Shown here piece by piece: positions 13,092 to 62,259 of a DNA stretch of 64,000 nucleotides (position 1 is the stretch's first letter; every line of letters starts with the position of its first letter). Source of the DNA: Candidatus Falkowbacteria bacterium (GTDB taxonomy: Bacteria; Patescibacteriota; Patescibacteriia; CAIXNZ01); contig CAVZGV010000003.1 in assembly GCA_963774955.1 (NCBI GenBank), forward strand, positions 128,771-192,770. Reading direction: 5' to 3'. A model generated the notes under the pieces. It did not search any database, was not told where the DNA came from, and saw only the letters and a program-made list of their open reading frames with translations. The translations under genes and the position numbers were made by a program.

Positions 13092-14913
13092 ATGTCTTGG
13101 ATTTTAAATACTTTAAAGAAATTAGCTAAAAAGAAAAGTTTTTGGATTATTTTGGTTATTGCCATTATTGCAGTAATTCTTATTTTTAACGCGACTAAAG
13201 GCAAGAAAACTGTTTATACGATGGAAACGGTTAAACTGGGCAATCTAGTTCAGACAGTATCAGAAACAGGTACGGTGGAATCAGCTTCGGCCATTGATCT
13301 GAATTTTAAAGGCAGCGGCAAGTTGGTTGACTTGAATATTAAAGAAGGTGATCAGGTTGAAGCCGGTGATCTACTGGCGCGTTTGGATGCCGGAGCTTTG
13401 GAAATTGCCGTGCGACAGTCACAAGCTAATGTTGATATTGCTCAGGCTAATTTAAATAAATTATTGGCCGGCGCCAGCACGGAAGATCTTAAAGTTACCG
13501 AAGAGACGGTTAATAATGCCAGAATTGCTTATGCCAATGCCAAGAATAATTATGATAATTCTTTGTTGAAAATTGACGCTGAGACTACGACTTATGAGCA
13601 GGCAGTGACAGCAGCGCAAACAAGCTTGGATAATACTAAAAATTCTTATGATAAAACCGTGGCTGATGCCAGACAGAATTTACTCACCACTTTGCGCAAC
13701 AAAGCCAATGTGGCCAACACCAGCTTGGATTTTATTTATTACCAATATAATAATTTGAACAATGTCAGTGACCAACAGGCCAAGTCCAATACCCTCTGGT
13801 CATATAATTTAGCCATGGATAATAAAACTAAATTGGTTAATTATTTGAATAAATCAGACCAGTCCATGAGTGAAGATGAAATCAGTCAGGCGAGTGCGAC
13901 TGCCATTACTCTTTTTGAGCAAATTAATGACAGTTTAAACAATCTTTTTAATGCTATCAGCTCCTCTGTCATTGATGCCCGTTTTTCGCAAACTTTGGTT
14001 GATAATGCCAAGGCTTTAGTTAAGAGCCAGCAGGCTGCAGACAGCGCCAATTTGTTGGCTTTACAATCAGCTGATCAGGCCTATAAGACAGCCAAATTGA
14101 GTTATACCAGCGCGGTTGATAATGCGACTTCTAATCTGACCACAGCCCAAAATAACCTTAATTCCGTCTTGGCCAATAAAGATGTTTCTTTGGTTTCCGC
14201 CAAAGCGACTTTGGATTCTGCTTTAGGCGCCTATAATCTGGCCCAGGCTCAATTGGCCTTCAAAGAGGCTAAACCCCGACAGGTGGATATCTCTTATTAT
14301 CAGGCTCAGGTAAATCAGGCTGTGGCTGCCAGAGATTTAGCTTTGAACAATTTGAAGGATTATGTTATTTATGCGCCTACAGACGGAGTGATTACTTTTG
14401 TAAATTACAAATTAGGCGAGCAAATCGGTATGGCTACGACTGCAAAACCGGCAATTGCCATTATTGGCAATAGTGATTTCCAGATTAAAGTTGATGTGCC
14501 GGAATCAGATATTATTAAAATTAAAGTCGGTAATGAAACCAATATCACGTTGGATGCTTATGGCAGTGACATTATCTTTAAGGGTAAAATAATATCTATT
14601 GATCTGGCTGAGACTGTGATTCAGGATGTGGTTTATTACAAAATTACTGTGGAACTGGAGCCGACTGACAAGGAAATTAAATCCGGCATGACTGCCAATG
14701 TCGATATTATCACGGCTACCGTCGAAAATGTTCTGTATTTATCGAACCGTACGATTAAAACAAGATACTGACGGCCAAAAATATGTGGAAGTTAAAAAAT
14801 TTGGCGGTGGAGAGGAAATAATTAATATTGAAATCGGCATCAGGGCTGATACCGGTACAGAAATTATAAGCGGTTTAAAAGACGGCCAGGAGGTGATTGT
14901 TTCTAAAAAATAA
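13092..14913 (+). CDS. HlyD/MacA-type periplasmic adaptor of an ABC efflux system; C-terminus frameshifted near 14760
   Basis: TM anchor, long coiled coil, beta-barrel (YVIYAPTDGVITFV). The C-terminal lipoyl-like segment DTDGQKYVEV...GLKDGQEVIV continues in the +1 frame (track ORF 14698..14913). Confidence 0.6.
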
Positions 14914-14922
14914 TAATACTGT

Positions 14923-15651
14923 ATGGAGAAAAAAGTACTAATAAAATTAGACAATCTTAAAAAAGATTATGTTAATGATGAAGTGGTTACCCATGTTTTG
15001 AAAGGCATTAATTTGGAAATTAATACAGGGTGAATTTGTGGCTATTATGGGTCCGTCCGGTTCAGGTAAATCAACGCTGATGCATATCATGGGTTTTTTG
15101 GATAAGCTGACTACTGGCAAATATTTATTCAAAGGTAAGGATGTTAGTAATCTGTCTGATGATGAATTGGCTGAAATCAGAAATGAAGAAGTCGGTTTTA
15201 TTTTTCAGGCTTTTAATCTGCTTACAGCGTACCAGTGTTTATGATAATGTGCGTTTGCCTTTGACTTATAGCAATAAAAAAATTTGATAAAGATAAAGTC
15301 ATTACTGCCATTAAATCAGTTGGTTTGTATCATCGTTTGAATAATTTATCCAATCAGCTTTCCGGCGGTGAAAAACAAAGAGTGGCGATTGCCCGCGCTT
15401 TGGTCAATGATCCGTCAATTATTTTTGCAGATGAACCGACCGGTAATTTGGATTCCAAATCCGGCAAACAAATCATGGAGATTTTGCAGGATTTAAATGA
15501 AGAAGGTAAAACTATTATTTTAGTTACTCATGAAAAATATACGGCAGAACATGCCCGCAGGATTATTAAAATCGTTGACGGCGAAATTATCGATGATTAT
15601 CAGGTTAAAGAGCGCTTGATTGCCAGATTAGAAAAAGATTTAACCAAATAA
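14923..15651 (+). pseudogene. MacB/LolD-type ABC ATPase, at least 3 frameshifts
   Basis: Walker [10 protein letters not shown] in one frame, [15 protein letters not shown] and the D-loop in another. Stops between fragments. Confidence 0.7.
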
Positions 15652-15654
15652 TTT

Positions 15655-16880
15655 ATGGAATTGGCTTCTAGCTTAAGAATTGCTTTTACCGGTTTGAAGT
15701 CAAAAAAGACCCGAACATTTTTAACAATGCTCGGGATTATTATTGGCATTTCTTCGGTTATTATGATTATTTCCGTAGGCGCCGGTGCTCAAAGTTTGAT
15801 TTTAAATCAGATTAAAGCTTTGGGTTCAAATCAAATTTCAATTTTTCCTGGTGCTTCAGAAGAATCAGGTCCGCCACCCAGTGTTTTTGGTTCAGCCAAT
15901 ACCAGTTTGAAAATTGATGATATGGAGGCTCTTGATAAACGTCAAAATGTGCCCAATGTCGTGGCTGTTACTTATTATGTCCGTGGTACTGGCTACCATG
16001 ATTTGGCAGGACAATGAATATAACGGTACTTTTGTGGCCACTACAGCCAGTTATCCGGTTGTTCATGATATTAGCGTGGCTGAAGGTCGTTTTATTGATT
16101 CAGATGAGGAAAAAGATCTGGCCAAAGTGGTTGTTTTGGGCGCCAACGTTAAAGCAAGAACTTTTTGGTGATAGCAGATCCTTTGGGTCAGATGATTAAA
16201 ATAAAAAAACATCAGTTTCGGGTTATTGGCGTTATGGCTAAAAAGGGGACTTCTGGTTTTGAAAATCAGGATAATTATGTTTTTATTCCGATTTCAACCG
16301 GCCAAAAAATAATGTTAGGTATTGATTATGTTTCCTTGGCCAGGGTCAAAGTCAATTCGCAGGATAATGTTGATCAGGCAGTTGAGGATATTAAGGCTGT
16401 TTTGCGGGACAGACATAATTTGGATCGCAATGAACTGGATGATTTTACTGTTCGAGCCCAGGCTCAGGCTATTGAAATTTTTTCTTCAATTACTGATTCT
16501 TTAACTTATTTTTTGGCAGCTATTGCCGCGATTTCACTTTTGGTCGGCGGTATCGGTATTATGAATATTATGCTGATTAGTGTGACTGAAAGAACCAGGG
16601 AAATCGGCTTAAGAAAAGCTTTGGGCGCCAAAAGATACAAATATTTTGCAGTCAATTTTTAATTGAATCAATTGCCGTAACTTTGGCCGGCGGAATTATC
16701 GGTATTATTTTTGGATTAGCGGTTTCTTTTTTAGTGGCTTTGATTGCCAGACAGTTGGGTTATGATTGGGATTTGTCATTTCTATTTTCCTCAATATTTT
16801 TTCCTGTACAATTTCCATTTTAGTCGGTTTATTTTTCGGCCTTTACCCGGCCTTCAAAGCCTCGAGAATTAAATCCGATT
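15655..16880 (+). pseudogene. MacB-type FtsX permease copy 1, multiple frameshifts
   Basis: N-terminal TM (TFLTMLGIIIGISSVI), MacB periplasmic domain pieces, and C-terminal FtsX helices spread over 3 or more frames. Confidence 0.6.
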
Positions 16881-16942
16881 GACAGGCTTTGCAATATGAA
16901 TAATATTGGTTAATTAGTTTATTAGTATAATTGGTTATTAGA

Positions 16943-18203
16943 ATGTTTAGAGAATACAAAAATCAATAGAAATAGCCAGGCTGCGATTATACGCCATAAA
17001 TTGCGGGCTGTTTTGACGATTTTGGGCATCACAGTCGGTATTACTGCGGTGATTGTGGTTTTATCTGCTGGTAAAGCAATTGAAGTTATTTATTACTAGC
17101 CAGGTAACTCAGTTTGGCACTGATTGGGTTGAGGTTGAAGTTAAAGTTCCGGCAACCGGCCATGCTTCGCTGGAAAATGCCGGTGGTATGGCTCAGGGCA
17201 TTACCATTACGACCATAAAAGAAAAAGATGCAGAGGAAATTAAAAAGTTTCCAATATTACTGATGTCTATGCCGGTATCAGTCGGCCAGGAAGTTGTGAC
17301 TGTATGAAAATAAAAATAAGATAGCCATGATTTTTGGCGTGACTGAAGGTTTTAGTCGAGTGGATACCGGTGAAATAAATGAAGGACGATTTTTTACTGA
17401 AGCAGAAGATAAGGGCTTGGCCCGGGTGGTAGTTTTAGGCAGTAAGCTCAAAGAAACTTTGTTTGGCGACGAAGACGCTATCGGTAAAACTATTAAAATT
17501 AAAAAATATAATTTTAAAGTAATCGGGGTGATGGCCGAGCGGGGTAGTGCCGGTGTTTTTTCCATGGATGATTTGATTATTATGCCTTTGCGAGTCTTTG
17601 CAAAAATTGATTCAGGGTATTGATTATGTCTCGTTTATTATTGGCAATATGAAGGATAAGTCTTTGGGGAGGAGACGGTTGATGATTTGACTTTATTTAT
17701 TGCGCGATCTACATGATATTACTGATCCTAGTCTGGATGATTTTGCCGTCACGACAGCTGATCAGGCCATGGATATGATTGGATATTATTACCGGGGCGA
17801 TTAAAATTTTACTTTTATGCTCTGGCCTCGAATTTCCTTGGTTGTCGGTGGGGTGGGGATTATGAATGTCATGTACGTTTCAGTGGCTGAACGTACTTTT
17901 GAAATCGGTTTGCGCAAGGCCTTGGGCGCAAAAAATGCTGATATTCAAAGCCAGTTTTTAACTGAAGCCGTGTTTATCACTTTTTTGGGCGGTATCTTTG
18001 GTATTATTTTGGGGGTGTTTATAACCTGGCTAATCAGCTATGTGGCCACTAACTTTTTAAATTTTGACTGGCAGTTTTATTTTTCAATCTCATATTTACT
18101 TTTAGCTTCCGGCATTTCTATTTTTGTGGGATTGGTTTCCGGCCTGTACCCGGCGCGCGCAGCCGCGAATTTGGATCCGATGGTGGCGCTGAGGAAAGAA
18201 TAG
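16943..18203 (+). pseudogene. MacB-type FtsX permease copy 2, multiple frameshifts
   Basis: LRAVLTILGITVGITAVIV N-terminus, periplasmic-domain fragments (track ORFs 17053.. and 17327..) and an intact C-terminal FtsX piece at 17817..18203. Confidence 0.6.
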
Positions 18204-21087: not shown

Positions 21088-21255
21088 GTAGAAGTTAGGA
21101 ATCCAATTGCTTCGAGTTACGATTACGTAATTGGGAACTTTCTCAAGGAAAGTGGAATCCGAGACTACGTGATTCCGCATTTGAGGTGCATAAGCCATAT
21201 TAATTTAAATAATTTGCCCGAACTCTTGCGAGCTCGGGCTTGGTGCAGAAACTTT

Positions 21256-21917: not shown

Positions 21918-23900
<1,983 letters not shown>

Positions 23901-23967
23901 GTGCTTGATATCCGTAGCTCGTAAGAGCGAAGGATAGGAGTTTGAGGAAGAGAAATAATTAGATTTT

Positions 23968-24567: not shown

Positions 24568-24598
24568 AGACAAATATGAATTATTAATAAATTGTTTT

Positions 24599-25373: not shown

Positions 25374-25682
25374 ATGCGTGAATACAATTTCTATGTTTAC
25401 ATCATGGCCAGTGATAGCGGAACATTGTATGTCGGCGTGACTAATAGCCTGGAACGGCGTGTCTGGGAACATAAAAACGGTATTCTGCCCGGCTTTACAA
25501 AGCGTTATTCCTGTCATAAACTGATTTATTTTGAACAATACGATTATATAGAAGATGCCATTGCCCGTGAAAAACAATTAAAACGATGGCGCCGGGAAAA
25601 GAAACAAAATTTAATCAAGACTTTGAATCCTTCATGGAAAGATTTAAGCGCAGATTGGTATAAACAAATTAATTTTAAATAA
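25374..25682 (+). CDS. stand-alone GIY-YIG (URI-domain) nuclease-family protein
   Basis: YVYIM..SGTLYVGVTNSLERRVWEHK and REKQLKRWRREKK. Confidence 0.8.
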   Translation: MREYNFYVYIMASDSGTLYVGVTNSLERRVWEHKNGILPGFTKRYSCHKLIYFEQYDYIEDAIAREKQLKRWRREKKQNLIKTLNPSWKDLSADWYKQINFK

Positions 25683-25688
25683 TATATT

Positions 25689-26885
25689 ATGTCTTCATTT
25701 GAATCAAATGAACAACCTCAAAACGGCTTTGATTATGTCCTGGCCGCTGATTTGGTGCGGCAGAAAATTGAATTTGAAAACAGCACGGACAAGAAATTGA
25801 AATCACAGCTGAAAAATAAGATTAAGGAAAATTTCGGCAGTATTGATACGCTTAAGCCGGAGAAAACTACGCCGACCAGGAAAATTTTTGAATTGGAAGT
25901 GGAACGACAGCGCCTTTTAAGCGCCCAGACCAATGGCGAACAGCCAGAAATTATCAGCACCCGTGAGATTGATTATGATCCGGCCCAGCAGCTTTTTATT
26001 TTTGAAGCCAAAGGCGGTTATAAGGTCAAACGCACTGCCGGTGATCTGATCAGTGATATTAATTGGGGACTTTATTATAATGTTGATAAATTGAAGGCCC
26101 AGCCGGAAATGGCGGAATTCATTAAAATTTACAAAGCCAAGATTTTTGACGCCAAGCTGGATGAAATTGAGGAAGAACAGTTGTTAATTGAAAGATTGGA
26201 AATTGATAAGGTCGGGAATCATGATTCCAACGTCGGCAAGGCTTATCTTAAAGCCTATGAAGCCTTGAAGAAAAGACAAGCTAAAAGAACCAAAGGGGAA
26301 ACTGATACTGAACTGGCTTCGGGTTTTGCTTTTGAAAGAATGATCAATTGTTTGCTGACCAAAGTGGCTTATGATTTGGGGGTTAAATGGGATTTTGATG
26401 TCAGACAGGCGACGGCTGATGATGATATTATCAATAAAATCGATGTGATTCTGGAATTTGTCAATAAACGACGCGGTGTGGGCGTGGAAAAAGAGCCGAC
26501 TGCCGCTGATCTGAAAAAAGGTTATCAGGTTACGTTGATTACTTCCGGGACAACTGAATTCAAACATAAGCAGGACCAGGTCAGAAAACAACAGGCCAAT
26601 TTTCAGCAGGCCAAAGCGCGCGGAGAAAAACCGCCGGTGGACGATTTGATTCTGATTAATCCCGGTGAGGAATTTGAAGATGTGGCTTCAACCTTAAAAA
26701 TTTGGAATAAGCAGGGTATGGCGGCCGGCGGACCGGAAAACTTTTTATCGATTGAACGTACGGTGGAAAAGTATTTGCGGGATATTTTTAAAGGCACCAA
26801 GCTAGATTTTGATAAGAATCCAGAATTCTTAGATGAAATCAAACAGAGTTTTAAGGCTAAGGGGATGAAGGAATCGGATAAATAA
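25689..26885 (+). CDS. hypothetical protein
   Basis: Intact 398-aa ORF, charged and helical; no motif recognised. Confidence 0.45.
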   Translation: MSSFESNEQPQNGFDYVLAADLVRQKIEFENSTDKKLKSQLKNKIKENFGSIDTLKPEKTTPTRKIFELEVERQRLLSAQTNGEQPEIISTREIDYDPAQQLFIFEAKGGYKVKRTAGDLISDINWGLYYNVDKLKAQPEMAEFIKIYKAKIFDAKLDEIEEEQLLIERLEIDKVGNHDSNVGKAYLKAYEALKKRQAKRTKGETDTELASGFAFERMINCLLTKVAYDLGVKWDFDVRQATADDDIINKIDVILEFVNKRRGVGVEKEPTAADLKKGYQVTLITSGTTEFKHKQDQVRKQQANFQQAKARGEKPPVDDLILINPGEEFEDVASTLKIWNKQGMAAGGPENFLSIERTVEKYLRDIFKGTKLDFDKNPEFLDEIKQSFKAKGMKESDK

Positions 26886-27028
26886 GGAATCGGTTTAAAG
26901 TTTAATGGCTACGATGCTCGTATCGTTTAGAGGTTGTGTCTTTCGTCCTAAAAAATCACCTTACCGTTTGACGCCTAACCATCCGGGCTTCGTTACCCTA
27001 ACCGTTTAACGTTTTACTATTATCAATT

Positions 27029-28141
27029 ATGTCCAAAGACTACTACAATATACTCGGCGTGGGTAAAACCGCGTCCAAAGAAGAAATCAAAAAGGCCTTT
27101 CGGGAAAAGGCCCATCTTTATCATCCTGATAAACCGGGTGGTGACGAGAAAAAATTTAAGGAAATTAATGAAGCTTATCAGGTTCTGGGTAATGATGAAA
27201 AGCGCCAGCAGTATGACCAGTTTGGCTCTGATTTTGCTCAGCAGGGCGGTTTTGGCGGTGGTATGGGCTGGGAGGACTTTATGCGTCAGGCCAGACAGGG
27301 CGGAGGCTCTTACAGCAATGTTGATTTTGATATGGGTGACTTAGGCGATATCTTGGGTGAAATGTTCGGCGGTGGGTTCGGGTTTGGCGGCGGCGGCAGA
27401 CGTAAATCTACGACTCGAGGCCGTGATATTGAAATTGACCTGACCTTGGATTTTAAAGACGCAGTCTTTGGCTCAGATAAACAGTTGGAAATGAATAAAT
27501 TAGTTACCTGTGAACATTGTCACGGCAATGGTGCTGAACCAGGCACTAAGATAAATGCTTGTAAAATCTGCGACGGCCAGGGAGCAGTTCGTAAAATGCA
27601 GAGGACGATTTTAGGCAATATCCAGACCATGGCTGCTTGTTCTGAGTGCCACGGCGAAGGTAAAACAAATGAAAAAAATTGTATTCAATGCGACGGCCAG
27701 GGCCGTAAAAAAGAAAACGTTAAAATTGAGATTAAAGTTCCGGCCGGCATGAATAATGGTATGAGCCTGAAAATGACCGGACAGGGTGAGGCCGGTATTA
27801 AAGGCGGTAAGACAGGCGATTTGTACATACATATTCACGTGAAGCCTGATCCTGATTTTAGACGTGAAGGCGATGATATTTTAACTCAACTTGATATAAG
27901 CTTTTCCCAGGCGGCTTTGGGCGCCAAGGTTCCGGTCAAAACCATTGACGGTGATGTTGATCTGAAAATTCCGTCCGGGACCCAGTCGGGCAAAGTCTTT
28001 ATTTTAAAAGGCAGGGGCGTGACCCGTTTTCAGCATTATGGCCGCGGCGATCAATTAGTTGAGGTGATTGTCAAAACTCCTGATAAATTAAATAAAAGAC
28101 AAAAGGAACTCTTGGAAGAATTGGGAAAGGAGGGGATTTAA
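27029..28141 (+). CDS. dnaJ: chaperone DnaJ
   Basis: J domain with HPD (YHPDK), G/F-rich linker, four CxxCxGxG zinc-finger repeats and a C-terminal domain. Confidence 0.9.
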   Translation: MSKDYYNILGVGKTASKEEIKKAFREKAHLYHPDKPGGDEKKFKEINEAYQVLGNDEKRQQYDQFGSDFAQQGGFGGGMGWEDFMRQARQGGGSYSNVDFDMGDLGDILGEMFGGGFGFGGGGRRKSTTRGRDIEIDLTLDFKDAVFGSDKQLEMNKLVTCEHCHGNGAEPGTKINACKICDGQGAVRKMQRTILGNIQTMAACSECHGEGKTNEKNCIQCDGQGRKKENVKIEIKVPAGMNNGMSLKMTGQGEAGIKGGKTGDLYIHIHVKPDPDFRREGDDILTQLDISFSQAALGAKVPVKTIDGDVDLKIPSGTQSGKVFILKGRGVTRFQHYGRGDQLVEVIVKTPDKLNKRQKELLEELGKEGI

Positions 28142-28300: not shown

Positions 28301-29777
28301 ATGAGTCCAGAACCGCAAAGTATAGCCAAAAATACAACTTTTTTAACTGTAGCTTATATTTTTCAGAAAGTATTTGCTTTTGTTTATTTTACCCTGGTGG
28401 CCCGCTTTATCGGCGCTACTGATATCGGTGTCTATACTTTTGCCATATCTTTAACCACGATTTTTTCTGTGTTTATTGATTTTGGTCTGTCCAGTGTTTT
28501 GGTCCGTGAGGCTGCCAAGTTTAAAGACAAGGCCAACGAGTATCTTAATAATATTATCTCCGTTAAAATTATTCTGGCGGTTTTGTCGTATCTGGCTGTT
28601 GCCGCGGTAATTAATCTGTCAGGCAAGCCGGCAATCAGTCAGACTATGGTTTATTTGGCCGGGTTGGTCATGATTTTGGATTCTTTTACTTTGGCCTTTT
28701 TTGCGGTTTTCCGCGCTTACCAGAATTTGAAATATGAAGCCATTGGTATTGCCATTAATCAGATCGTAATTTTAGTCGTCGGCTTGGCCGGTATTTACCT
28801 GAAATTTCCTTTATATGTTCTGGTCTTGGCGCTTTTAGCCGGCAGTACCTTTAATTTTTTATATTCCTTAATTCTGCTCAAAGTAAAACTGAAGTTCAAT
28901 TTTAAATTGCTCTGGGATAAACCGATATTAAAGACTTTATTTAAAATTGCCTTACCTTTTGCTTTAGCCGGTATCTTCGTCCGTGTCTACAGTTATATTG
29001 ATCAGATTTTATTGTCGGTTTTAATCGGGGATCAGGCTTTGGGCTGGTATTCCGTGCCATATAAAATTACATACGCCTTTCAGTTTGTGCCCGCAGCTTT
29101 TGCAGCCGCGATTTACCCGGCCATGAGCGACTGTTTTGTCAGCAATAAGGAAAAACTGAAAATTATTTTTGATAAGTCCATGTATCTGCTGATTATTTTG
29201 TCAGTGCCGACCGCGGTCGGTATCGCCTGCCTGGCTGATAAAATAATCCTGTCTTTATATACTGCGGAATTCAGCCCGTCAATTTTAGCCCTGCAGATTT
29301 TTATCCTGGCGGTCATCCCGATATTTTTAAATTATCCGGTAGGTTCACTTTTAAACGCCTGCGACCGGCAGGCCAGAAATACTTTTAATATGGGGCTGAC
29401 TATGGTTCTGAATATTATTTTAAATCTGATTTTGATCCCTTATTATCAGCATGTGGGCGCGGCTCTGGCGGCGTTGACCAGCCTGACTGTTTTATTTATT
29501 TTAAACTTGGGTCAGGCGCCGAAGATTATAAGTTATGACGCCAGGTATTTGGCTATTAAGTCAGCCAAGTCGATTTTTGCTGCCTGCGGTTATGGCCGCT
29601 TTGATTTTATTTTTTAAAACGCAATTACATTTTATAATTTTAATAATAATGGGGGCAGCTGTTTATCTGGGCATTATGTATGTGATTAAAGGTTTTACCA
29701 AAGCAGACGTCTTATTTTTATGGCAGGCCATATTTAAAAAAGCTGTGCCGAGTGAGGAGGAGACTCTAAAAACATAG
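28301..29777 (+). CDS. Wzx-like polysaccharide flippase (MOP family); last 2 TM helices in shifted frame
   Basis: Twelve or more TM helices with typical MOP flippase topology. A C-terminal helical hairpin continues in track ORF 29535..29777. Confidence 0.55.
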
Positions 29778-29880: not shown

Positions 29881-30997
29881 ATGAAAAAAACTTTACTTAT
29901 TACCATTGATTTTCCGCCGCAAAAGGGCGGGGTGGCCACATATTTAAGCAATTTGTGTCGTAATTTTGATTCCGGTAAAATTGTGGTTTTGGCCAATAAA
30001 CAGGAAGGGGCTGAACATTTTGATAATAAGCAGCGCTATAAAATAATCAGGGCTCGGCTATTTTGTAAATTTTTCTGGCCGGCGTGGTTACGAACTTTGC
30101 GTCAGGCTAAAAAAGTAATCCGTAAGGAAAAGATTGAACAAATTTTAATTTCACATGTTTTACCCATGGGCTATATTGCTTTACTATTAAAACTGCCCTT
30201 TGTTGTCAGTTTGCACGGTTATGATGTTTTGGCCGCGCAAAAAACCGACTGGAAAAAATATTGGCTGCTGAAAATTTTAACCAAAGCCAAGGCAATTATT
30301 GTTAACAGTAATTTTACTGAAAAAGGAAGTTTTAAAATTGGGTTTGTCTGAACAAAAAATTACTTTGGTTTATCCGTGTCCCAATATAAAGCCGGAAGAT
30401 TTGAATTCCCAGGAGCGTCAGACCTTAAAAACTGAATTGGAACTGCACGGCAAAAAAGTACTTTTATCAGTCGGCCGCTTAGTTCCACGCAAAGGATTTG
30501 ATAAGGTGATTGAGTCATTGTCCGAAGTTATTAAGAAAGTGCCGAATTTACAATATTTAATTGTTGGCAATGGACAATATAAAGATGACCTAGAAAAACT
30601 GGCTTTAAATTTAAAAGTTTTGGACCATTTGACTATTTGCGAAGATATTCCCGATACCAACTTGCCGTCCTATTATGATCTGGCAGATGTTTTTATCATG
30701 CCGGCACGGCAGATTGATGTTTGTGACGTGGAAGGCTTTGGCATTGTCTATCTGGAAGCCAATTCATTCGGCAAACCGGTCATTGCCGGTAAAAGCGGGG
30801 GAGCCAGCGAAGCGGTTATAGACGGCCAAACAGGACTTTTGGTTGATCCGGCCAATGTGAGTGATATTGCTAAGGCGATTACCCAGTTAATGACTAATCA
30901 GGAGTATGCCATGAAATTGGGTGAAAATGGCAAGGCTCGAGTTATGAATGAATTTCAGTGGCTTTTACAAGTTGAGAAATTAAAAAATATATTATGA
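29881..30997 (+). pseudogene. GT4-family glycosyltransferase with one frameshift near 30325
   Basis: N-terminal GT4 domain (track ORF 29881..30351) and C-terminal EX7E-type domain (30299..30997) in different frames. The break is at an A-run. Confidence 0.6.
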
Positions 30998-49134: not shown

Positions 49135-49215
49135 GGCTTGACACGGGCTTGAAAATTTTTTACTATATATTATATCCTATATGGGATAATCTAATTATTA
49201 AATAAAAAAGAAATT

Positions 49216-49404
49216 ATGTCTGAGGTAATTTCTATGGCAGATGAATTAATTTTGAATTCAGCCATGTTATTGGCAGATGAAGATGATGAAGAAGCAGAAG
49301 AAGCGGAAGAAGTTGAAGAAGATGATGATGCTGCTGATGATGATGAAGAAGCTGATGATGATGAAGTTGATGAATCTGACGAAGAAGAAGAAGATAACGA
49401 ATAA
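49216..49404 (+). CDS. 62-aa hyper-acidic small protein (40-residue D/E tail)
   Basis: Own AT-rich upstream region and a strong terminator at 49412-49440 (AAAAAGGGCGCTAAGTACGCCCTTTTTT). Non-periodic codon usage argues against a simple tandem repeat. Confidence 0.4.
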   Translation: MSEVISMADELILNSAMLLADEDDEEAEEAEEVEEDDDAADDDEEADDDEVDESDEEEEDNE

Positions 49405-52417: not shown

Positions 52418-54799
52418 ATGAAAAAAACAAAAATCATCTTGAGTCTTATCATTCTGGTTTCATCTGTCGCTATCGGCGGTTTGAGTTCAATGGTTTCAGC
52501 GCAAACCGTTCCCTCAATCATTGATATTAACGACGGCACAAATTATTCCGGAAATTCCAAAACATTATATGCAACTACTTATATTGAAGCCACTTGCTCT
52601 TTAGCCTATAGTAAAAATTCAGATACCAGTAATGGTACTACGGTTTTGGGCGGTGTGGTCCAGACTCCGACTGCGACCAATGACGGTAAATATTATTATG
52701 CCTTCAATTTAACAGGATTGGATGGGGTTTCTATTTATTATTACAAAGTAATGTGCACGGCTAATGGTCAAACTGATGTTAGCACCATTAGAACCTTAAC
52801 TGTTCAAGGATCAACCCAGATAATTATTGATATTAACGACGGCATAAGTTATTCCGGATATAGTAAAACAATATATGCAACTTCTTATGGCCAGGCCACT
52901 TGTTCTTTGGCTTACGGCAAGAATTCAGATACCAGTAATGGCACTACAGTTTTAGGCGGTGTTGTTCAGACTCCTGCAGTGGGCAATGACCAGAAATATT
53001 ACTATGCATTTAATTTAACAGGTTTGGACGGTGTTTCAGTTTATTATTACAAAATAATGTGTACTGCCAGCGGACAAAGTGATATAAGTACTATTAAAAT
53101 TCTGAGCCCAATAATTACGAGTAAAGTCTTTAATGGTGACGGGACATATGATATTAATGCCGGTGACAGGGTAAAATTAAATAATGGAGCAACTATTGAA
53201 CCTATTTTTTATACTTCGGGAGATTTTTTAAATGTAAAATTTGATGTTTATGACAGCAGTTTAATTAAAATAGGTACGAGCGATTTTACCAGGACAGCTT
53301 GGTCAGCATTGAGTTATGCTGTCGGCAGCTATAAAATGCAATTTAAAGTTAATTCAGCCGGCTCTTCATCAGGCAAATATTTTGGCAATATCACCTTTAC
53401 TAGCGTTAGCGCGAATGCTTTTGAAATTACAAGCGTCAGGGTTGATAAATTAGATGCAGTGGGTAATCCCGCTGAAGACGTGCGCAGTTTTAGTATCACT
53501 GCTAATCAGCAATTTACTAATTTGCAAATTACGCTCTATGAATTGCCAAGTACGACCTCTTATTTTACTTTAAATGTACCAGGAACTGCTTCTTCTGTTT
53601 ATGTCAGCCCAGGGAATTGGCCAAAAAAATTAAATCCCAATAAAACATATAAATATGTGATCAGCGCTAAGAGCACTCAAACGGCTGAAACTGATACTTA
53701 TGAGAGTACTTTTACCTCCAGTAATTTTACTTCAGAGGGCGATACCATTACTCAAATTACTATTTTGACTCCTAACGGAGCAGAAAATTTTGTTCAGGGT
53801 AATCTTAATCGCATCAGCTGGTCAGGTGGAACGGAAAAGGTTCAAATTGGCGTATTAAAAGGTGCGTCCGTGACAGCTGACGCAACCGGCAATTTATTGG
53901 GCTGGATTAATACTAATTTAACACCTAATAGCAGCACTTATTGGGATGGCAAAAACATTTGCGATTTAATAGGTACTACCTGCTGGGATCTGGCTGCCGG
54001 AAGTTATAAAATAGTAGGCGTATCCAAAGATAAGGACGGAAATTATTTATTAAATTATCCCGGCAATCTGGATATTAGCGATAACGCTTTTAATATTATT
54101 GCCCCTCCGGCGTCAGTTCCTATTACCTCTGGACAGGAAAATATTTATATTCAAAGGATTAAAGAATTGGAATACCGCATTTCTGAACTGGAAAATCAGG
54201 TTACTGCTTTGGCCCAAAAAACTTTTACCTATAGAAATCAAAATTTGATTGGTCGTACTGCCGGCAGAATTCTTTTACAGGTTGAAACTAACGGGCAGGC
54301 CTGGTATTTGGATCCTGTAACTGCAAAAAGATATTATTTGAAAGACGGTAATTCCGCCTATATAGCCCTAAACGCTTTTGGTTTGGGGGTCACGAATAAT
54401 GACTTGGCCAAAATCCCTATTGGCGTAGAATCAAGATTTCAATTGAATGACGGTGACGGCGACGGGTTGGCTGATAATTTGGAAAGAGCGATTGGAACTA
54501 ATCCTGGGGATTCAGATTCTGATGATGACGGTTTTTCTGATGGTGAAGAGGTTAAAAGCGGTCATAATCCCTTAGGCGCTGGTAATTTAAATTTGGATTA
54601 TAACTTAGCCACTAAATTAAAAGGGAAAATTTTATTGCAGGTACAATCTAAGGGTGAGGCTTGGTATGTGAGTCCGGTAGACAGTAGAAGATATTATTTG
54701 GGTGACGGTGAATCCGCTTATCAGATCATGAGATTTTTAAGTCTGGGTATTACCAATGATAATTTGAATGAAATTCCGGTTGGCAGTTTAAATTATTAA
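52418..54799 (+). CDS. secreted cell-surface protein with internal repeats
   Basis: Signal/TM sequence, 2 x ~100-aa repeats (IIDINDG..YSG.SKT.YAT.Y..ATCSLAY.KNSDTSNGTTVLGGVVQTP), an Asp-rich TSP3-like DGDGDGLADN...DSDSDDDGFSDGEE segment, and 2 x C-terminal repeats (GKILLQV...EAWY..PV...RYYL.DG.SAY). Confidence 0.6.
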   Translation: MKKTKIILSLIILVSSVAIGGLSSMVSAQTVPSIIDINDGTNYSGNSKTLYATTYIEATCSLAYSKNSDTSNGTTVLGGVVQTPTATNDGKYYYAFNLTGLDGVSIYYYKVMCTANGQTDVSTIRTLTVQGSTQIIIDINDGISYSGYSKTIYATSYGQATCSLAYGKNSDTSNGTTVLGGVVQTPAVGNDQKYYYAFNLTGLDGVSVYYYKIMCTASGQSDISTIKILSPIITSKVFNGDGTYDINAGDRVKLNNGATIEPIFYTSGDFLNVKFDVYDSSLIKIGTSDFTRTAWSALSYAVGSYKMQFKVNSAGSSSGKYFGNITFTSVSANAFEITSVRVDKLDAVGNPAEDVRSFSITANQQFTNLQITLYELPSTTSYFTLNVPGTASSVYVSPGNWPKKLNPNKTYKYVISAKSTQTAETDTYESTFTSSNFTSEGDTITQITILTPNGAENFVQGNLNRISWSGGTEKVQIGVLKGASVTADATGNLLGWINTNLTPNSSTYWDGKNICDLIGTTCWDLAAGSYKIVGVSKDKDGNYLLNYPGNLDISDNAFNIIAPPASVPITSGQENIYIQRIKELEYRISELENQVTALAQKTFTYRNQNLIGRTAGRILLQVETNGQAWYLDPVTAKRYYLKDGNSAYIALNAFGLGVTNNDLAKIPIGVESRFQLNDGDGDGLADNLERAIGTNPGDSDSDDDGFSDGEEVKSGHNPLGAGNLNLDYNLATKLKGKILLQVQSKGEAWYVSPVDSRRYYLGDGESAYQIMRFLSLGITNDNLNEIPVGSLNY

Positions 54800-54815
54800 G
54801 ATTAATTGTATTTTT

Positions 54816-55019
54816 ATGAAAGATTTAAAAAATGTGATCAGTAACGGCATTGAAATGGAAGATGACTTTATCAAGACTTATATGGCTGTGATCAAGGACG
54901 AGGGGTTTGCCCAGTATTTCGACACCAATCAGGGCAAAGCTGAGGAAATGCTTCAAACGTTAATTAAAGAAAGCACCTGGCATAAACAAGTGCTTGAGGA
55001 TATCTTGAAAACTTTATAA
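54816..55019 (+). CDS. small hypothetical protein
   Basis: Intact 67-aa ORF. Confidence 0.35.
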   Translation: MKDLKNVISNGIEMEDDFIKTYMAVIKDEGFAQYFDTNQGKAEEMLQTLIKESTWHKQVLEDILKTL

Positions 55020-55037
55020 AGATTAACTTAATTCTAT

Positions 55038-55226
55038 ATGGCCGACCGTGAAATAGTTTTAGACATCTTAAAAGACGCGCTTAAACGAGAAAAACAAGCT
55101 GAAGATAATTGTGAGGAAATTTTAGTGCATCTCAAGAAAAACGGTTTTACGAACGCAATTGAAAAAATAAAAAATGACGAACATCACCATCAGCAAATCG
55201 TCAGAAAATTAATGGATATGATTTAG
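55038..55226 (+). CDS. small hypothetical protein
   Basis: Intact 62-aa ORF. Confidence 0.35.
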   Translation: MADREIVLDILKDALKREKQAEDNCEEILVHLKKNGFTNAIEKIKNDEHHHQQIVRKLMDMI

Positions 55227-55304
55227 TTTCTGGTCTGAAATCCGCTGCCGTAAGGTGGCGGGTTTTTAGTTGTCAAAACAAGTAAAAGTTGCTAAATTAT
55301 ATGT

Positions 55305-55895
55305 ATGCTCAAACAAAATGACAAGTCTACCTCAATTTTTTTAGGCACAATCATAAAGGTAGTGCTTAATTACCTCAGGTACTCCCAGATGGTCTGGATG
55401 ATAGTTTTCTGGGCCATGTTTTTGTTTGTGTTTTTCCTGACCATGATTTTTGTGGTTATATCGTCACGGCCAGAATTACTTACTAATGCTTTGAATTATC
55501 TGATCAGACTTTTTAATATCCGGGATTTACATGTTGACACTGTCTGGGGCAAGGAAGAAATTTTGTGGGCCTATGGGATTCTATCAATGGTTGTTTATGC
55601 GATTGTGGCTTTGTTTAAATTAATATTTAACCTTAAATTCACCTTGAATCTCAAGCAAAAGATTGTTTTATTTGTCGGTCTAATCGGCTGTATGACCGGC
55701 TTAATGTTCGTTTTTATATCTTTGGCCTATTTTTTCTCCCATGACAGCATTTACCTTGGTTATTATGGGTTAATAGTCTTTTTCGCTATTTGTACTCTTG
55801 GTACAAGTCTTTATTATTTATTGGTCAGTTGGGTCATAGATTTTGTCATCAAGATCATTGATTATAATTTAGAGCGTAATAGCGTATTAAAATAA
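55305..55895 (+). CDS. integral membrane protein, unknown function
   Basis: 196 aa, 5-6 TM helices. Confidence 0.45.
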   Translation: MLKQNDKSTSIFLGTIIKVVLNYLRYSQMVWMIVFWAMFLFVFFLTMIFVVISSRPELLTNALNYLIRLFNIRDLHVDTVWGKEEILWAYGILSMVVYAIVALFKLIFNLKFTLNLKQKIVLFVGLIGCMTGLMFVFISLAYFFSHDSIYLGYYGLIVFFAICTLGTSLYYLLVSWVIDFVIKIIDYNLERNSVLK

Positions 55896-55896: not shown

Positions 55897-58323
55897 ATGG
55901 CTGAAGTAACACCGATGCTCAAACAATACCGGGCGATCAAGGATCAGCATAAAGACTGTATCCTGTTTTTTCGCTTGGGAGATTTTTATGAAATGTTTGG
56001 CCCCGATGCCATGGAAGCTTCTAAAATTTTAAATATTACTCTGACCGCCCGAGGCAAGGGGACTGTTAATGAAGTGCCCATGTGCGGGGTGCCCTATCAT
56101 GCTGCCGAAGGCTATATTGCCAAATTAACCAGAGCCGGGAAGAAGGTCGCGATTTGCGAACAAATGACTGACCCGAGTTTGCCTGGTATTGTGGAACGGG
56201 ATGTGATCAGGATAATTACCCCGGGGACAACTTTGGATAATAATATTTTGGATAATAAAAGAAATAATTATCTTGTTTCTTTGGTGAACAAGGATAATCT
56301 TTGGGGTTTAGCTTTTGTGGACTTAACTACCGGCGAATTTAAGCTGGCGGAAATCCGCAAGCTGGATGATTTGATTAATGAACTTGGCAGAATCATGCCC
56401 ACGGAAATTATAGTCACTCCTGATTTGCATGAAAATTTGCAGCTAGTTACCAAACTAAAAAATTTAAGCAGCGTAAATATATTTTATCCCGCGATTTTCA
56501 AGTCAGCGCCTGAAACCTTACTGGAACATTTTAAAGTAAAATCCCTGCAGAGTTTTGGTATTGAGAAATCTTTAATCGGGCTTGAGGCGGCCGGTAATTT
56601 GGTTAATTACTTGAAAGATACCCAGAAAACTTCCCTGGAACATATTAATAAACTTGGCTCTCTACAATATTTCCGATTACATGATTCTGGATGAGGCCAC
56701 GATTCGAAATTTGGAACTTTTATATACTTATCAGCTTTTTGAACAAAAAGGATCTTTAATTTCCATTCTTGATCAGACGCAAACCGGTATGGGCGGTCGG
56801 CTTATTGCGCAACTGGCTTTTACATCCGTTAATTAAGGCTGAAAAGGTTCAGGCGCGTTTGGAAGCAGTTGCGGAATTTTATAATAATTTAGATTTGCGG
56901 GAAAATCTGAAAGGCGAATTGAAGAATATGGCTGATATTGAACGTCTGATCGGTCGGTTGGGCTGTAAGCGAGCAAATGCGCGTGATTTGGTTAATCTGA
57001 AAAACTCTTTACAGCAAATTCCGCAGATTAAGAGTCTGGCTTAAAAATTGTGATTCAAAATTATTAAAGGATAGTTATAAATATTTGGATGACCACAAAG
57101 AAGTCGTTGAATTAATCCAAAAATCAATTGCGGAAGATCCGCCTTTAATTAATTACTGACGGCGGCATGATTGCTGACGGTTATAATTCAGAACTTGGAT
57201 GAATTAAGGAAAATTTCAACTTCCGGTAAAGATTGGCTCAGTGATTTACAAACCCGGGAGGCGCAAAGAACCGGAATTTCTTCCTTAAAAGTTAAATTTA
57301 ATAAAATATTCGGTTATTACATTGAAGTTACCAATTCCAATTTGGCCCAGGTACCGACTGATTATACCCGCAAGCAAACTTTAGTTAATGCGGAGCGATT
57401 TGTGACGCCGGAACTGAAAGAATACGAACAAAAGGTTTTGGGCGCTCAGGAACAGATTATCGAAATAGAACAACGTCTATTCTGGGAAATACGAGATGCA
57501 GGTGGCCAAACATTTTGAAGCCATTCAGGCCACTGCGCAGGTTTTGGCTCAGCTGGATGTGCTTCTGAATTTTGCCAATATCGCTTTATTGAATAATTAT
57601 GTTAAACCTGAAATAAATGACGGGGGAGTGGTAATAATTAAAAATGGACGTCATCCGGTGATTGAAAAGTTACTGACCGAAGAATCTTATGTGCCCAATG
57701 ACGGTCTATTTAATCATGAAGACCATCAGTTGATTTTACTGACCGGCCCTAATATGAGCGGTAAGTCCAGTTATCTGCGCCAGACTGCCTTGATTATTTT
57801 ATTGGCGCAGATCGGTTGCTTTGTTCCGGCTGAGGCAGCTAAGATTGGAATAGTTGACAGAATTTTTACCCGTGTCGGCGCGTCTGATAATTTAATCCGC
57901 GGCCAGTCAACTTTTATGGTGGAAATGCAGGAAGCAGCCAATATTTTAAATAATGCCACCAGTAAAAGTTTTATTGTCCTGGACGAACTAGGCAGGGGAA
58001 CCTCAACTTACGACGGTGTGTCCATTGCCTGGGCCATTGTGGAATTTATTTATAAAAATATCAAAGCCAAGACTTTATTTGCCACGCATTATCATGAATT
58101 GATTGATTTAGTGGCCAAGCTTGATAAAGCCAAGAATTACTGTGTCAGTGTTAAAGAAACAGATACTGGTGTTATCTTTTTACGTAAAGTTATGCCAGGC
58201 GGGATTGACCGTTCCTATGGCATTGAAGTCGCTAAGTTGGCCGGCCTGCCCAAGGCTTTGACGGATAGGGCGTATGAAATTTTGGCGGAGCTAGAAAGTG
58301 AAATTAAAATAACGAAAAAATAA
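55897..58323 (+). pseudogene. mutS: DNA mismatch repair MutS, at least 5 frameshifts
   Basis: N-terminal mismatch-binding domain (TPMLKQYRAIKDQHKDCILFFRLGDFYEMFG), connector, lever/clamp and an intact C-terminal ATPase ([13 protein letters not shown]; DELGRGTST) spread over 5-6 frame segments (track ORFs 55897.., 56654.., 56769.., 57171.., 57496..). Confidence 0.8.
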
Positions 58324-58379
58324 ACCGCTGGGCAACCGGCGGTTTTATATTTGACAGCAATTATCTTGTCTGCTAACAT
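58323..58379 (+). promoter_or_regulatory. terminator-promoter module A (hairpin AAACCGC-N9-GCGGTTT then TTGACA-17-TAACAT)
   Basis: Same module is repeated at 59192-59250. Near-consensus promoter. Confidence 0.55.
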
Positions 58380-58410
58380 GATAAATCAAAAGACAAAGGA
58401 GGACTTGCTA

Positions 58411-58851
58411 ATGGATTCAATGTTTTGGGTTTATGTTACAGTCGGGTTGATTTTTGTGACAGTTGCGGTAGCAATCAAGAGCATATATTACACCAGCAAT
58501 GTAAGACAGAAATACAGTTGGACATTGTATAGTCTGGTGATCGCCTCTGTCTGTTTGGTCAATCTTTTGGTCATTCAGAGATTTTTTAACCAACTTGGAT
58601 TGTTTCAGACGCACGGATCGATCATCTTATTCTGTACATACGCACCCTATGCGTTATGGGCTTTCTCCCTATATTTTTTGAGAAACACTGCTCAGGCCAT
58701 GCACAAACAGGATTTTCATAAAACTCATTTTTCCAGCATTTATGCTTTCAACATGATCCTGCTAGCAGTAATGATACCATTGGCGCATATATTTTTTGCC
58801 TATGTAAATTCTGTCATCCATCCGTTGTCCAACCAGCTGATGCTGATTTAA
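58411..58851 (+). CDS. integral membrane protein (about 4 TM helices), unknown function
   Basis: RBS AAAGGAGG then ATG at 58411. The track ORF starts at the -35 TTG. Confidence 0.5.
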   Translation: MDSMFWVYVTVGLIFVTVAVAIKSIYYTSNVRQKYSWTLYSLVIASVCLVNLLVIQRFFNQLGLFQTHGSIILFCTYAPYALWAFSLYFLRNTAQAMHKQDFHKTHFSSIYAFNMILLAVMIPLAHIFFAYVNSVIHPLSNQLMLI

Positions 58852-58957
58852 CCTTTTAGTCATTAAAAAACGCCAGGATACCTTGGCGTTTTTCTTTTAT
58901 TGACAAAAATGAAAAATACTGATATTTTAAATCAAGTCCTGACAGGAGGTACAAATC

Positions 58958-59188
58958 ATGACTATAAAAAGAACGGATAGAAATATAAAAGGACATCATG
59001 TCTTTAAAAAACAAAATCCAACCAAAGCAAAAGTTGTTTGTAGTCGCTGTGCTGACATTTGTTGCATGCGCAATATTACACCGACTTGGGCCTTGCCTAC
59101 TGAAGCAAGCCATGGGGCGATCAAACATTATACTTGTGAGGAAAGGGTTGTGGATAGGGGCATGGTCAGAAAAGGACTTTGTGCCTGA
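58958..59188 (+). CDS. small basic Cys-motif protein, paralog A
   Basis: RBS CAGGAGG, own terminator-promoter module upstream (58869-58928). Motif VVCSRCADICCMRNITPTWALP...TCEE. Confidence 0.5.
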   Translation: MTIKRTDRNIKGHHVFKKQNPTKAKVVCSRCADICCMRNITPTWALPTEASHGAIKHYTCEERVVDRGMVRKGLCA

Positions 59189-59273
59189 GCAAAACCGCTA
59201 ATAAATTTGGCGGTTTTATATTTGACAAATCTCTTTAAATCTGGTAAATTTAGTTACCACAGGAGGGACAAAA

Positions 59274-59507
59274 ATGTCGAAAAGAAAAAGGTTGATTTTG
59301 AGAAGAAACTGGATAGAGCATCAACGGTTCTTTCATAAGTTTCCGCCCAATGGGCCAGTCTATTGCAGCCGCTGCGCAGATGTCTATTGTTTGCGGAATA
59401 TTACTCCGACCAGGCTTTTGCCTCGCGATTCAAAACTTGGCAAATTGCGACAGCGGACCTGCAAGGAAATGCTTCGGGACAGAGCTTTGCCCGTTGATTT
59501 GGGCTGA
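59274..59507 (+). CDS. small basic Cys-motif protein, paralog B
   Basis: RBS AGGAGGG, own terminator-promoter module (59192-59250). Motif VYCSRCADVYCLRNITPTRLLP...TCKE. Confidence 0.5.
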   Translation: MSKRKRLILRRNWIEHQRFFHKFPPNGPVYCSRCADVYCLRNITPTRLLPRDSKLGKLRQRTCKEMLRDRALPVDLG

Positions 59508-60477: not shown

Positions 60478-62259
60478 ATGACTAAGATTCAACGTTTAGA
60501 TCAAGATTTAATCAATAAAATTGCTGCCGGCGAGGTTGTCGAGCGGCCGGCTTCAGTTGTTAAAGAGTTGGTCGAGAATTCCATTGACGCCGGTGCTGAC
60601 CAGATTGCTATCGACTTGGAGAAAGGTGGTATTGATTTGATAGTAATTACTGATAATGGCAGCGGCATGAGCAGGGAAGACGCCGAACTTGCAGTTGAGA
60701 GACATGCGACTTCAAAGATTACCAAACTTGATGATCTTTTTGATATTCAAACCATGGGTTTTCGCGGGGAAGCTTTGGCCAGCATATCTGCTGTCGCCCA
60801 ATTTACTTTGGAAACCAAAATTAAAGAGAGCATTGAAGGCACTAAGTTGCTTATGGCTAATGGCAAATGGCAAATAGCTTCATGCGGATGTCCCAAAGGT
60901 ACAAAAATAGCAATTAAAGATTTGTTTTACAATGTGCCGGCGCGCAAGAAGTTTTTAAAAACTCCGCTGACCGAGTACAATCATATTTTAGAAATTATTA
61001 CGGCGTTTGGTTTAATCCAACCTCAAATTAGTTTTAAACTGACTCATAATAAGGTTATGGTTTTAAATTTATCCAAAACAGATAATTGGCTTGATCGGGT
61101 TAAACAGGTTTTGGGTCAGGATCTGGCCAAGGATTTAATTGAAATCAAACAGCCGGGTACAATTGAAATTTCTGGGTTTGTGGGCAAACCGCAAATCGCT
61201 CGCCAAAACCGTAAGTCCCAGTTTGTATTTGTGAATAATCGTTATGTCAGCGATTATCTGATTGCCAAGGCGGTCAAAGAAGCTTATGGCAGTTTGATCC
61301 CGCGGGAATTAAATCCTGTTTTTGTATTAAGCTTGAACTTGCCGTCAAAGATGGTTGATGTCAATGTGCATCCGCAAAAAGCCGAAGTGAAATTTGCCAA
61401 TTCTAATGAAGTTTATTCTGCTGTGTTGCAGGCAGTTCAGAGATTTTTAGCCCAGAATATGACCGTCGCTCAATATCAGGTTGAAGCGCCAGCTAACGGC
61501 AAGCTTTATACTTTAAAATCACAACCTGAAGCACGTGAATATAAACCCGCGGTCAGTTACCAGTCGCATTTTCAAAATATTAAATCCCAGCCTGGGACTT
61601 CATCTCAGGCTTTGGAATTCTCCAAACAGATCTTGAAGGATGATTTTGCTGAACAAAAAGACCAGCAAAATATCGGGGACTGGAAATTACTGGGTCAGAT
61701 TCATAATGCTTATCTTTTAGTTGATTCTCCTAGCGCGATTTTGATCATTGACCAGCATGCGGCTGCGGAACGTTTGCTATATGAGCGATTTAAAGCTGAA
61801 TATGACAATCACGGCATCAAGTCCCAAAAATTACTCTTGCCTTTGAATCTGGAATTGTCACATCGAGAAGTGGAGGTTTTAAATCAGAGTTTGGAATTTT
61901 TGAAACATCTGGGTTTTGATATAGAAATTTTCGGGGCTAATACTTTCAAGGTCAATGCTGTGCCGCAGGAACTGGATAAACTGGATGTTAAGGCGACAAT
62001 TTTAGGCTTAATTAATGATTTGGAAGTCAATGATTTTGATAAAGCCAAGTCAGTGGAAGACAAAAAAGATTTGATTATCAAATATGCCGCTTGCCGCGGT
62101 GCCATTAAATTTCAGGACAAACTGGAATCAGAAGAACAAATTAAATTGCTAGAAGATGTTCGAGATATGAAGGATAAAATAAATACCTGCCCGCATGGTA
62201 GACCTTTTATTATGGAGCTGACCATGGATCAGTTGGCTAAAAATTTTAAGAGGAAATAA
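60478..62259 (+). CDS. mutL: DNA mismatch repair MutL
   Basis: GHKL ATPase motifs (ELVENSIDAGA; DNGSGM; GFRGEAL) and the C-terminal dimerisation domain. Confidence 0.9.
   Translation: MTKIQRLDQDLINKIAAGEVVERPASVVKELVENSIDAGADQIAIDLEKGGIDLIVITDNGSGMSREDAELAVERHATSKITKLDDLFDIQTMGFRGEALASISAVAQFTLETKIKESIEGTKLLMANGKWQIASCGCPKGTKIAIKDLFYNVPARKKFLKTPLTEYNHILEIITAFGLIQPQISFKLTHNKVMVLNLSKTDNWLDRVKQVLGQDLAKDLIEIKQPGTIEISGFVGKPQIARQNRKSQFVFVNNRYVSDYLIAKAVKEAYGSLIPRELNPVFVLSLNLPSKMVDVNVHPQKAEVKFANSNEVYSAVLQAVQRFLAQNMTVAQYQVEAPANGKLYTLKSQPEAREYKPAVSYQSHFQNIKSQPGTSSQALEFSKQILKDDFAEQKDQQNIGDWKLLGQIHNAYLLVDSPSAILIIDQHAAAERLLYERFKAEYDNHGIKSQKLLLPLNLELSHREVEVLNQSLEFLKHLGFDIEIFGANTFKVNAVPQELDKLDVKATILGLINDLEVNDFDKAKSVEDKKDLIIKYAACRGAIKFQDKLESEEQIKLLEDVRDMKDKINTCPHGRPFIMELTMDQLAKNFKRK

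Follow-up and report, generated by a model that had tools for sequence, protein, structure and literature searches.

Does a mutS gene that is broken into pieces reflect the genetics of an organism or a flaw in its sequence? This question is raised by a locus within a 64,000-nucleotide stretch of DNA (hereafter the window), whose genome is of the Patescibacteria or candidate phyla radiation type and Parcubacteria-like. Read literally, the sequence would have mutS and dnaK annotated as pseudogenes, along with the genes for a glycosyltransferase, a flippase and an efflux pump of the MacB type. The organism would pass for a mismatch-repair-deficient mutator without its main Hsp70, which would be remarkable in a reduced genome of the candidate phyla radiation. 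The analysis described here leads to a different view, namely that in all likelihood neither the fragmentation of mutS nor the mutator genotype is a real feature.

The mutS gene, encoding a MutS1-type mismatch-repair ATPase, occupies positions 55897..58323 on the + strand. It does not form a single uninterrupted reading frame. The open reading frame list and a three-frame translation of 55897-58323 both trace the MutS sequence along the path 0>1>2>0>1>2>0, and all 2427 nt of the locus are colinear coding sequence (2421 nt) apart from six extra bases. The initial annotation had described MutS domains lying in the correct order across at least 5 frame segments; open reading frames, translation, Pfam matches and alignment bear out the frameshifts and the domain order and raise the count to seven segments. 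In a MAFFT alignment of the window with five orthologous, uninterrupted genes (L083, L084, L081, L001 and L007; 81-84% nucleotide identity), exactly six one-base columns are peculiar to the window, and the 2421 aligned positions are otherwise gap-free. A custom-written, frameshift-aware protein-to-DNA aligner independently recovered six +1 events at the same places.

All six extra bases lie on the + strand in the interior of the gene. The first, at 56658 (frame 0>1), has the context AAACTTGG[C]TCTCTAC, with a placement that is uncertain within ~5 nt. The second, at 56804 (1>2), turns the CGGCTT-TTGCGC of the relatives into CGGCTT[A]TTGCGC, and the third, at 57040 (2>0), is best placed as a single C that duplicates no adjacent base (AGTCTGG[C]TTAAAAAT). 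At 57149 (0>1) the window reads CCTTTAA[T]TAATTACT and its relatives TTGA-TAATTACT; at 57197 (1>2) the context is GAACTT[G]GATGAA. The last, at 57498 (2>0), is again best placed as a single base, a G in CGAGAT[G]CAGGTGGCC, with no duplicate beside it. When Pfam models are run on the uncorrected gene, the domains are spread over the segments accordingly: MutS_I and MutS_II at 55897-56694, MutS_III in two parts at 56654-56836 and 56769-57044, MutS_IV at 57171-57518, and MutS_V at 57496-58323. The last of these spans its whole profile (1-188/188), in agreement with the earlier description of the C-terminal ATPase piece as intact.

Removal of the six bases restores an uninterrupted ORF of 806 codons, free of in-frame stops, that ends in one terminal stop and encodes 806 aa. 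Along its entire length (100%) this product, pieced together by eye from the segments for the comparison, matches an intact 806-aa orthologue (P0001) at 92% identity and some twenty other full-length proteins at 83-92%, and it is colinear with the orthologues of at least five other genomes. It scores 1071 bits against NF003810 (cut-off 480; profile 2-793/793) and 1019 bits against TIGR01070 (cut-off 641.7), and with 184 bits it falls under the 400 cut-off of the MutS2 model. Five Pfam domains are complete and in order: MutS_I (1-112/113), MutS_II (1-132/133), MutS_III (1-194/194), MutS_IV (1-91/92) and MutS_V (1-188/188). The translation also retains the mismatch-binding Phe-X-Glu motif (GDFYEMF), the Walker A motif GPNMSGKS and the Walker B motif DELGRGT. 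By its sequence, the corrected gene product is clearly predicted to be an ordinary MutS1, a standard member of a well-known family.

Further along the same strand, mutL (60478..62259, +) encodes a 593-aa protein of the endonuclease type with the motif DQHAAAERLLYE. Its frame is unbroken, its length is that of the orthologue in L081, and its TIGR00585 score of 550 bits stands well above the cut-off of 180; mutL is indeed intact, as had been stated at the outset. The order of genes near mutS (P-type ATPase, methyltransferase, DUF4015, Band_7, mutS and, further downstream, mutL) is the one found in relatives, with the sole exception of an inserted 793-aa repeat protein in the window. Sliding identity against four relatives revealed neither a switch of nearest relative nor a jump in identity that would mark the mutS patch as foreign or chimeric. 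A structured RNA was also considered as an explanation of the region, and an Rfam scan of the window returned two tRNAs only. The closest MutS match is 92% identical as protein and ~83% as nucleotide sequence, and the nearest relatives of MutS and DnaK come from freshwater-sediment metagenome-assembled genomes and contigs. Neither the MutL product nor the C-terminal MutS product of the window was found among public assemblies, and hence no second assembly of the same organism.

The lesion of mutS recurs in other genes of the window. The dnaK gene (21930..23900, +), aligned with seven intact orthologues (L085, L087-L091 and L093), follows the same frame path, 0>1>2>0>1>2>0, through six one-base insertions at 22317, 22903, 23059, 23291, 23571 and 23639, and it has zero deletions. 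It is the most strongly constrained gene of the window, and both grpE and dnaJ are intact. A MacB-type ABC ATPase (14913-15648, +) carries three +1 events. In the two FtsX/MacB permeases that follow it (15655-16900 and 16926-18200, +), a single base has been inserted ~19 times and deleted three times, and two bases have been inserted together once; one permease alone has ~13 frame-shift sites. The trio as a whole (14913..18200, +) thereby holds ~22 one-base insertions, with the two-base insertion and the three deletions of the permeases in addition. The idea that the events are strictly insertion-only was discarded, as protein-guided alignment places those three deletions in the two permease genes. 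Once its segments are joined, permease B aligns gap-free to solved MacB structures over the repaired junctions. Directly upstream of these genes, macA/HlyD (13092-14771) is intact. Single events affect a GT4 glycosyltransferase (29881..30997, +), which has one +1 split near 30322 in the context GAAAAA|GGAAG, and a polysaccharide flippase (28301..29777, +), whose C-terminal ~55 aa lie in the +1 frame after ~29585, at or beside a T5 run. Tracing of frames ab initio along the entire window flagged further shifts at 596, 5735, 10051, 24565, 49402, 50138, 51343 and 54791, and on inspection all eight proved to be ordinary gene junctions or overlapping ORFs.

These events are strikingly uneven in their distribution. 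Seven genes, ~10 kb in all, hold 39 events, whereas 22 other genes amounting to ~32 kb hold zero, among them those for PBP, a Mur ligase, primase, RpoD, DnaJ, GrpE, MacA, the P-type ATPase and MutL. Under a uniform rate, zero events in the intact genes would have a probability of ~1e-13, and a uniform error rate is therefore ruled out. The error-rich patches lie at ~15.0-18.0 kb, 22.3-23.6 kb and 56.66-57.50 kb, with isolated events near 29.6 and 30.3 kb; elsewhere the contig is clean. All six events of mutS are concentrated in the central 35% of its length (P = 0.02), and the 1.7 kb of macA contain zero events, for which the probability at the local density is 2.5e-6. Because the mutS events are confined to the middle of the gene and macA is clean beside riddled MacB genes, the distribution suggests that patches are set by position rather than by gene. 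As a counterpoint to an artefact, events confined to certain genes would fit the death of particular genes naturally, while an artefact needs local patches of poor consensus.

The direction of the events is equally lopsided. The window as a whole has ~35-36 insertions against 3 deletions, a ratio of ~12:1, and the probability of at least 35 insertions among 38 events under a 1:1 expectation is 3e-8. For mutS and dnaK together, 12/12 are insertions (P = 2.4e-4 under 1:1). The position of each extra base was scored by homology and compared with simulation, an approach that replaced an over-permissive criterion based on the absence of stop codons. With this homology-guided placement, duplication of an adjacent base is impossible for 4/12 resolved events in mutS and dnaK and ambiguous for the other 8. 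The duplication-compatible share, 8/12 (67%), compares with 49% expected for random bases inserted at random positions in the same genes, and it looks random rather than slippage-driven. Moreover, at least five events in the MacB genes (16176, 16649, 17280, 17302 and 17818) lie unambiguously outside runs, and at least 9 insertions in the window are incompatible with homopolymer slippage.

Homopolymers are for the most part spared. None of the 12 best-resolved events falls in a run of at least 4 bases, yet mutS and dnaK together contain 36 runs of at least 5. The P-type ATPase gene is intact despite 16 runs of 6-8 bases, and dozens of runs of 5-8 bases are undisturbed in the affected and neighbouring genes. 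A minority is associated with runs: the insertion at 15285 in A7, the event at ~29585 at T5, and three deletions in short homopolymers, of which 17668 is a contraction from G5 to G4. The initial annotation had spoken of many A-run indels, a label that does not hold, since A runs account for only a minority of the indels in mutS, dnaK and the MacB-type genes. Nor is there a homopolymer indel excess within the window, where long runs are undisturbed; the lack of such an excess, genome-wide, had itself been named beforehand as grounds for giving up the mutator proposal. In Delta-mutS mutation-accumulation lines of two Vibrio species, single-base indels are mostly homopolymeric, occur at a rate that rises with run length, and comprise roughly equal numbers of insertions and deletions; in wild-type lines the balance is tilted 2-3 fold towards deletions (PMC5854121). 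The spectrum of mismatch-repair deficiency, concentrated in homopolymers and with insertions about equal to deletions, is not the one seen in the window. As a separate observation, a profile that is nearly insertion-only and lies outside homopolymers also mismatches the best-known nanopore and 454/Ion Torrent profiles, which is a counterpoint to an artefact.

A gene that has died should in time lose the imprint of selection. Substitutions unique to each lineage were counted at sites where the other sequences agree, with a neutral expectation for the ratio of nonsynonymous to synonymous counts near 3. For mutS, the window branch has 31 nonsynonymous and 87 synonymous changes (31/87), a ratio of 0.36 within the 0.27-0.59 of intact relatives; for dnaK the counts are 5/49 and the ratio is 0.10, with 0.39-1.35 in intact relatives. 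Purifying selection on window-branch mutS and dnaK is the same as or stronger than in intact orthologues. Features of a decaying bacterial pseudogene, namely relaxed selection (dN/dS rising towards 1), in-frame stops and deletions at least as frequent as insertions, are all absent from the two genes, which have zero deletions. For dnaK, the 95% upper bound on any neutral phase is ~0.8% divergence; this leaves room for no more than ~14 substitutions, yet the gene has six indels. With so small a bound, the insertions, if real, must have arisen essentially instantaneously, far faster than substitutions. The 840-nt stretch of mutS that holds the six insertions shows no excess of substitutions; raw noisy sequence might have brought one to this patch, which is a further counterpoint to an artefact.

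Judging from these sequence comparisons, the extra bases are very probably errors of sequence production, a local consensus or assembly error, and not the work of a genuine mutator. This conclusion is drawn because selection is unrelaxed, stops are lacking, insertions prevail 12:1 and lie outside runs, and dnaK is hit; real decay would in addition need an indel-to-substitution ratio of at least ~0.4 and a dead dnaK with surviving grpE and dnaJ. An artefact with the same explanation as for dnaK had been offered beforehand as the alternative to a mutator, and it is the one now favoured, the dnaK signature of six +1 single-base insertions being identical. Single extra bases may have been introduced in base-calling, consensus building, assembly or later handling. 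One candidate route would be stretches of long-read consensus left uncorrected by accurate reads, for instance where a hybrid metagenome assembly was gap-filled or had poor coverage. Another candidate would be the collapse of co-assembled strain variants, in which misalignment of variants close to one another leaves a false extra base behind; collapse of allelic variants in long-read assembly is known to produce indel errors and apparent frameshifts (PMC8445201). The organism itself would then be proficient in mismatch repair, with a mutS that presumably encodes a functional MutS1-type protein near an intact MutL, and its dnaK, MacB-type pump, GT4 glycosyltransferase and flippase would be intact genes.

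A more specific form of such an error can be proposed tentatively. A mismatch at a strain SNP might have been treated as an insertion plus a deletion and both bases kept, so that both alleles came to be written in tandem, in which case the patches would mark tracts where the strains differ, for example recombined ones. Many extra bases do stand beside a different third-position base such that the two codons would be synonymous, as in AAG[A], TTG[A], GTG[C], CTA[G] and AAA[G] of dnaK, CTT[A], ATT[A] and CTT[G] of mutS, AGT[C] and ACT[G] of permease C, and AAA[G] of GT4. With homology-guided placement, 9/12 events are compatible with this scheme, where simulation of random insertions gives 40.5% (binomial P = 0.017), and a figure of ~18/30 (P roughly 0.02-0.03) is reached when 18 more events, classed by eye, are added, which is weak support. 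The scheme would account at once for the insertion bias, the lack of a substitution excess and the patchiness, and nearby allelic variants have been reported to cause indel errors in collapsed long-read assemblies (PMC8445201). However, several events would require nonsynonymous allele pairs, and the three deletions, the two-base insertion and the insertions within runs (A7 at 15285) do not fit. Writing of alleles in tandem is accordingly a possible, somewhat doubtful, way in which production errors may have come about.

That mutS is a genuine pseudogene is improbable. On this account all that would be left of the gene product is an N-terminal piece of 265 aa, perhaps along with a free ATPase fragment, and mismatch-repair deficiency or genome decay would have caused the frameshifts elsewhere. 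The frame breaks are truly present in the given sequence, they are limited to a subset of genes, as if only dead genes gather events, and the three deletions and a few insertions in short homopolymers (15285 in A7; ~29585 at T5; 17668, G5>G4) are of the expected kind. Against this stand the window-branch ratios (for mutS on a par with intact orthologues, for dnaK below them), together with zero in-frame stops. Indels per neutral substitution would have to reach at least ~0.4. The ~12:1 prevalence of insertions, mostly outside runs, is the opposite of both the Delta-mutS spectrum and the wild-type deletion bias, and the 36 runs of at least 5 bases in mutS and dnaK and the 16 runs of at least 6 in the P-type ATPase gene are untouched. 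It would be odd, too, for a constrained chaperone gene such as dnaK to be dead while grpE and dnaJ are intact, or for macA to be intact beside riddled macB genes. Unrelaxed selection, the lack of in-frame stops, undisturbed long homopolymers and events that are almost all insertions and mostly not in homopolymers count against the proposal that loss of MutS gave a hypermutator phenotype that could in turn explain the other indels.

It is very unlikely that the extra bases are real and stem from a recent loss of MutS combined with an insertion-biased, homopolymer-independent process, such as a polymerase or repair defect that adds untemplated bases; even dnaK would then have been inactivated faster than substitutions accumulate. 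Recoding, whereby the sequence would be correct and ribosomes would efficiently shift frame by +1 or read quadruplets wherever there is an extra base, is scarcely credible: all events in mutS and dnaK are +1 and each gene is back in its original frame after six, but the 12 sites have in common neither a shift motif nor a slippery codon nor a neighbouring stop, the candidate four-base codons vary from site to site (CTTG, CTTA, ATTA, GATG, AAGA, CTAG and others), programmed +1 frameshifting would call for a conserved site (a slippery or hungry codon, often with a stop) that orthologues share and the insertions are absent in all orthologues, at least 6 sites per gene and ~13 in one permease would be unprecedented, and deletions occur too.

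Production errors of this kind have consequences beyond mutS. A contig with local error patches calls for caution over any gene loss or pseudogene deduced from the genome ahead of read-level checks. As a by-product of the comparison, frame-corrected sequences are available that can be used for annotation.

How does the locus compare with known systems? Like the bacterial MutS1 proteins of E. coli and Thermus aquaticus, the window MutS has the five-domain order I-II-III-IV-V, the Phe-X-Glu, Walker A and Walker B motifs and end-to-end equivalog scores, and it differs from them in that its frame, as written, is broken six times. Compared with E. coli MutS it is short (806 aa) and without the long C-terminal extension, a length that resembles those of its closest Patescibacteria orthologues, 799-806 aa. 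Similar to MutS1 systems paired with an endonuclease-type MutL, a mutL with the DQHA(X)2E(X)4E motif lies near the window mutS. As in natural mutS- or mutL-deficient mutators and Delta-mutS lines, a disrupted mutS would give a mutator phenotype, and single-base indels are characteristic; unlike in the Delta-mutS lines (PMC5854121), the long runs of the window are untouched and insertions exceed deletions by ~12:1. A further parallel is found among errors of long-read assembly and collapsed variants. The window departs from the typical homopolymer-deletion profile of nanopore assemblies, as its errors are patchy, nearly all insertions and mostly outside homopolymers. In other respects its frameshifts resemble those described for Kastor (PMC12007338) and for the allele collapse in T. 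brucei (PMC8445201): they fall in otherwise conserved genes, carry no signature of evolutionary decay and can be removed by comparison with orthologues.

Directly 5' of the broken mutS, the window departs from the gene order of its relatives. Between the Band_7 gene and mutS, at 52418-55895, sit a secreted repeat protein of 793 aa and, after it, three small ORFs. The protein is built from two N-terminal repeats of ~95 aa each, a TSP3 repeat and two C-terminal repeats of ~50 aa each. Because Band_7 lies immediately upstream of mutS in L081 and L083, two related sequences with an intact mutS that do not carry the repeat protein at this position, the interval looks like a lineage-specific insertion. 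On the other side of mutS (58338-59507) are two small, cysteine-rich paralogous ORFs (58958-59188 and 59274-59507) sharing the motif CSRCADxxCxRNITPT, as well as a 19-nt perfect direct repeat, GGCGGTTTTATATTTGACA, whose copies at 58338 and 59209 each lie a short way past a stop codon.

Additional genes also punctuate the heat-shock cluster (19816-28141), which comprises hrcA (encoding a 231-aa product), grpE, the broken dnaK and dnaJ. Three ORFs break it up: one resembling a SAM-methyltransferase (23968-24567), a small GIY-YIG-like ORF (25374-25682) and a 398-aa ORF (25689-26885). A further region, at 6000-12000, stands out by its GC content of 0.46-0.52 versus 0.37-0.42 elsewhere in the window and may be an acquired island; it carries an AAA ATPase (5973-7928) and three further ORFs: one of 339 aa, one like a pyruvate-kinase barrel and one resembling adenylosuccinate synthetase.

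At 49195-49401, where the ab initio scan flagged a frameshift, there is a highly acidic ORF (~60 aa) containing long stretches of Asp/Glu. Its reading frame differs from that of the following ORF, whose annotated start it overlaps, and the two appear to be separate genes.

The only one-base deletions found in the window, three in number, are at 16777, 17243 and 17668. All three fall within short homopolymers (T4>T3, CCA-AAT or CCC-AAT, and G5>G4), a property in which they differ from the window's insertions. The macA-macB operon (13092-18200) consists of an intact HlyD-family macA, a MacB ATPase gene and, encoded separately from the ATPase, two paralogous FtsX/MacB permeases, an arrangement also found in five relatives (L098, L104, L107, L117 and L149). 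The MutL encoded at 60478-62259, for its part, contains DQHAAAERLLYE, which fits the endonuclease motif DQHA(X)2E(X)4E and so identifies mismatch repair here as the MutH-independent type.
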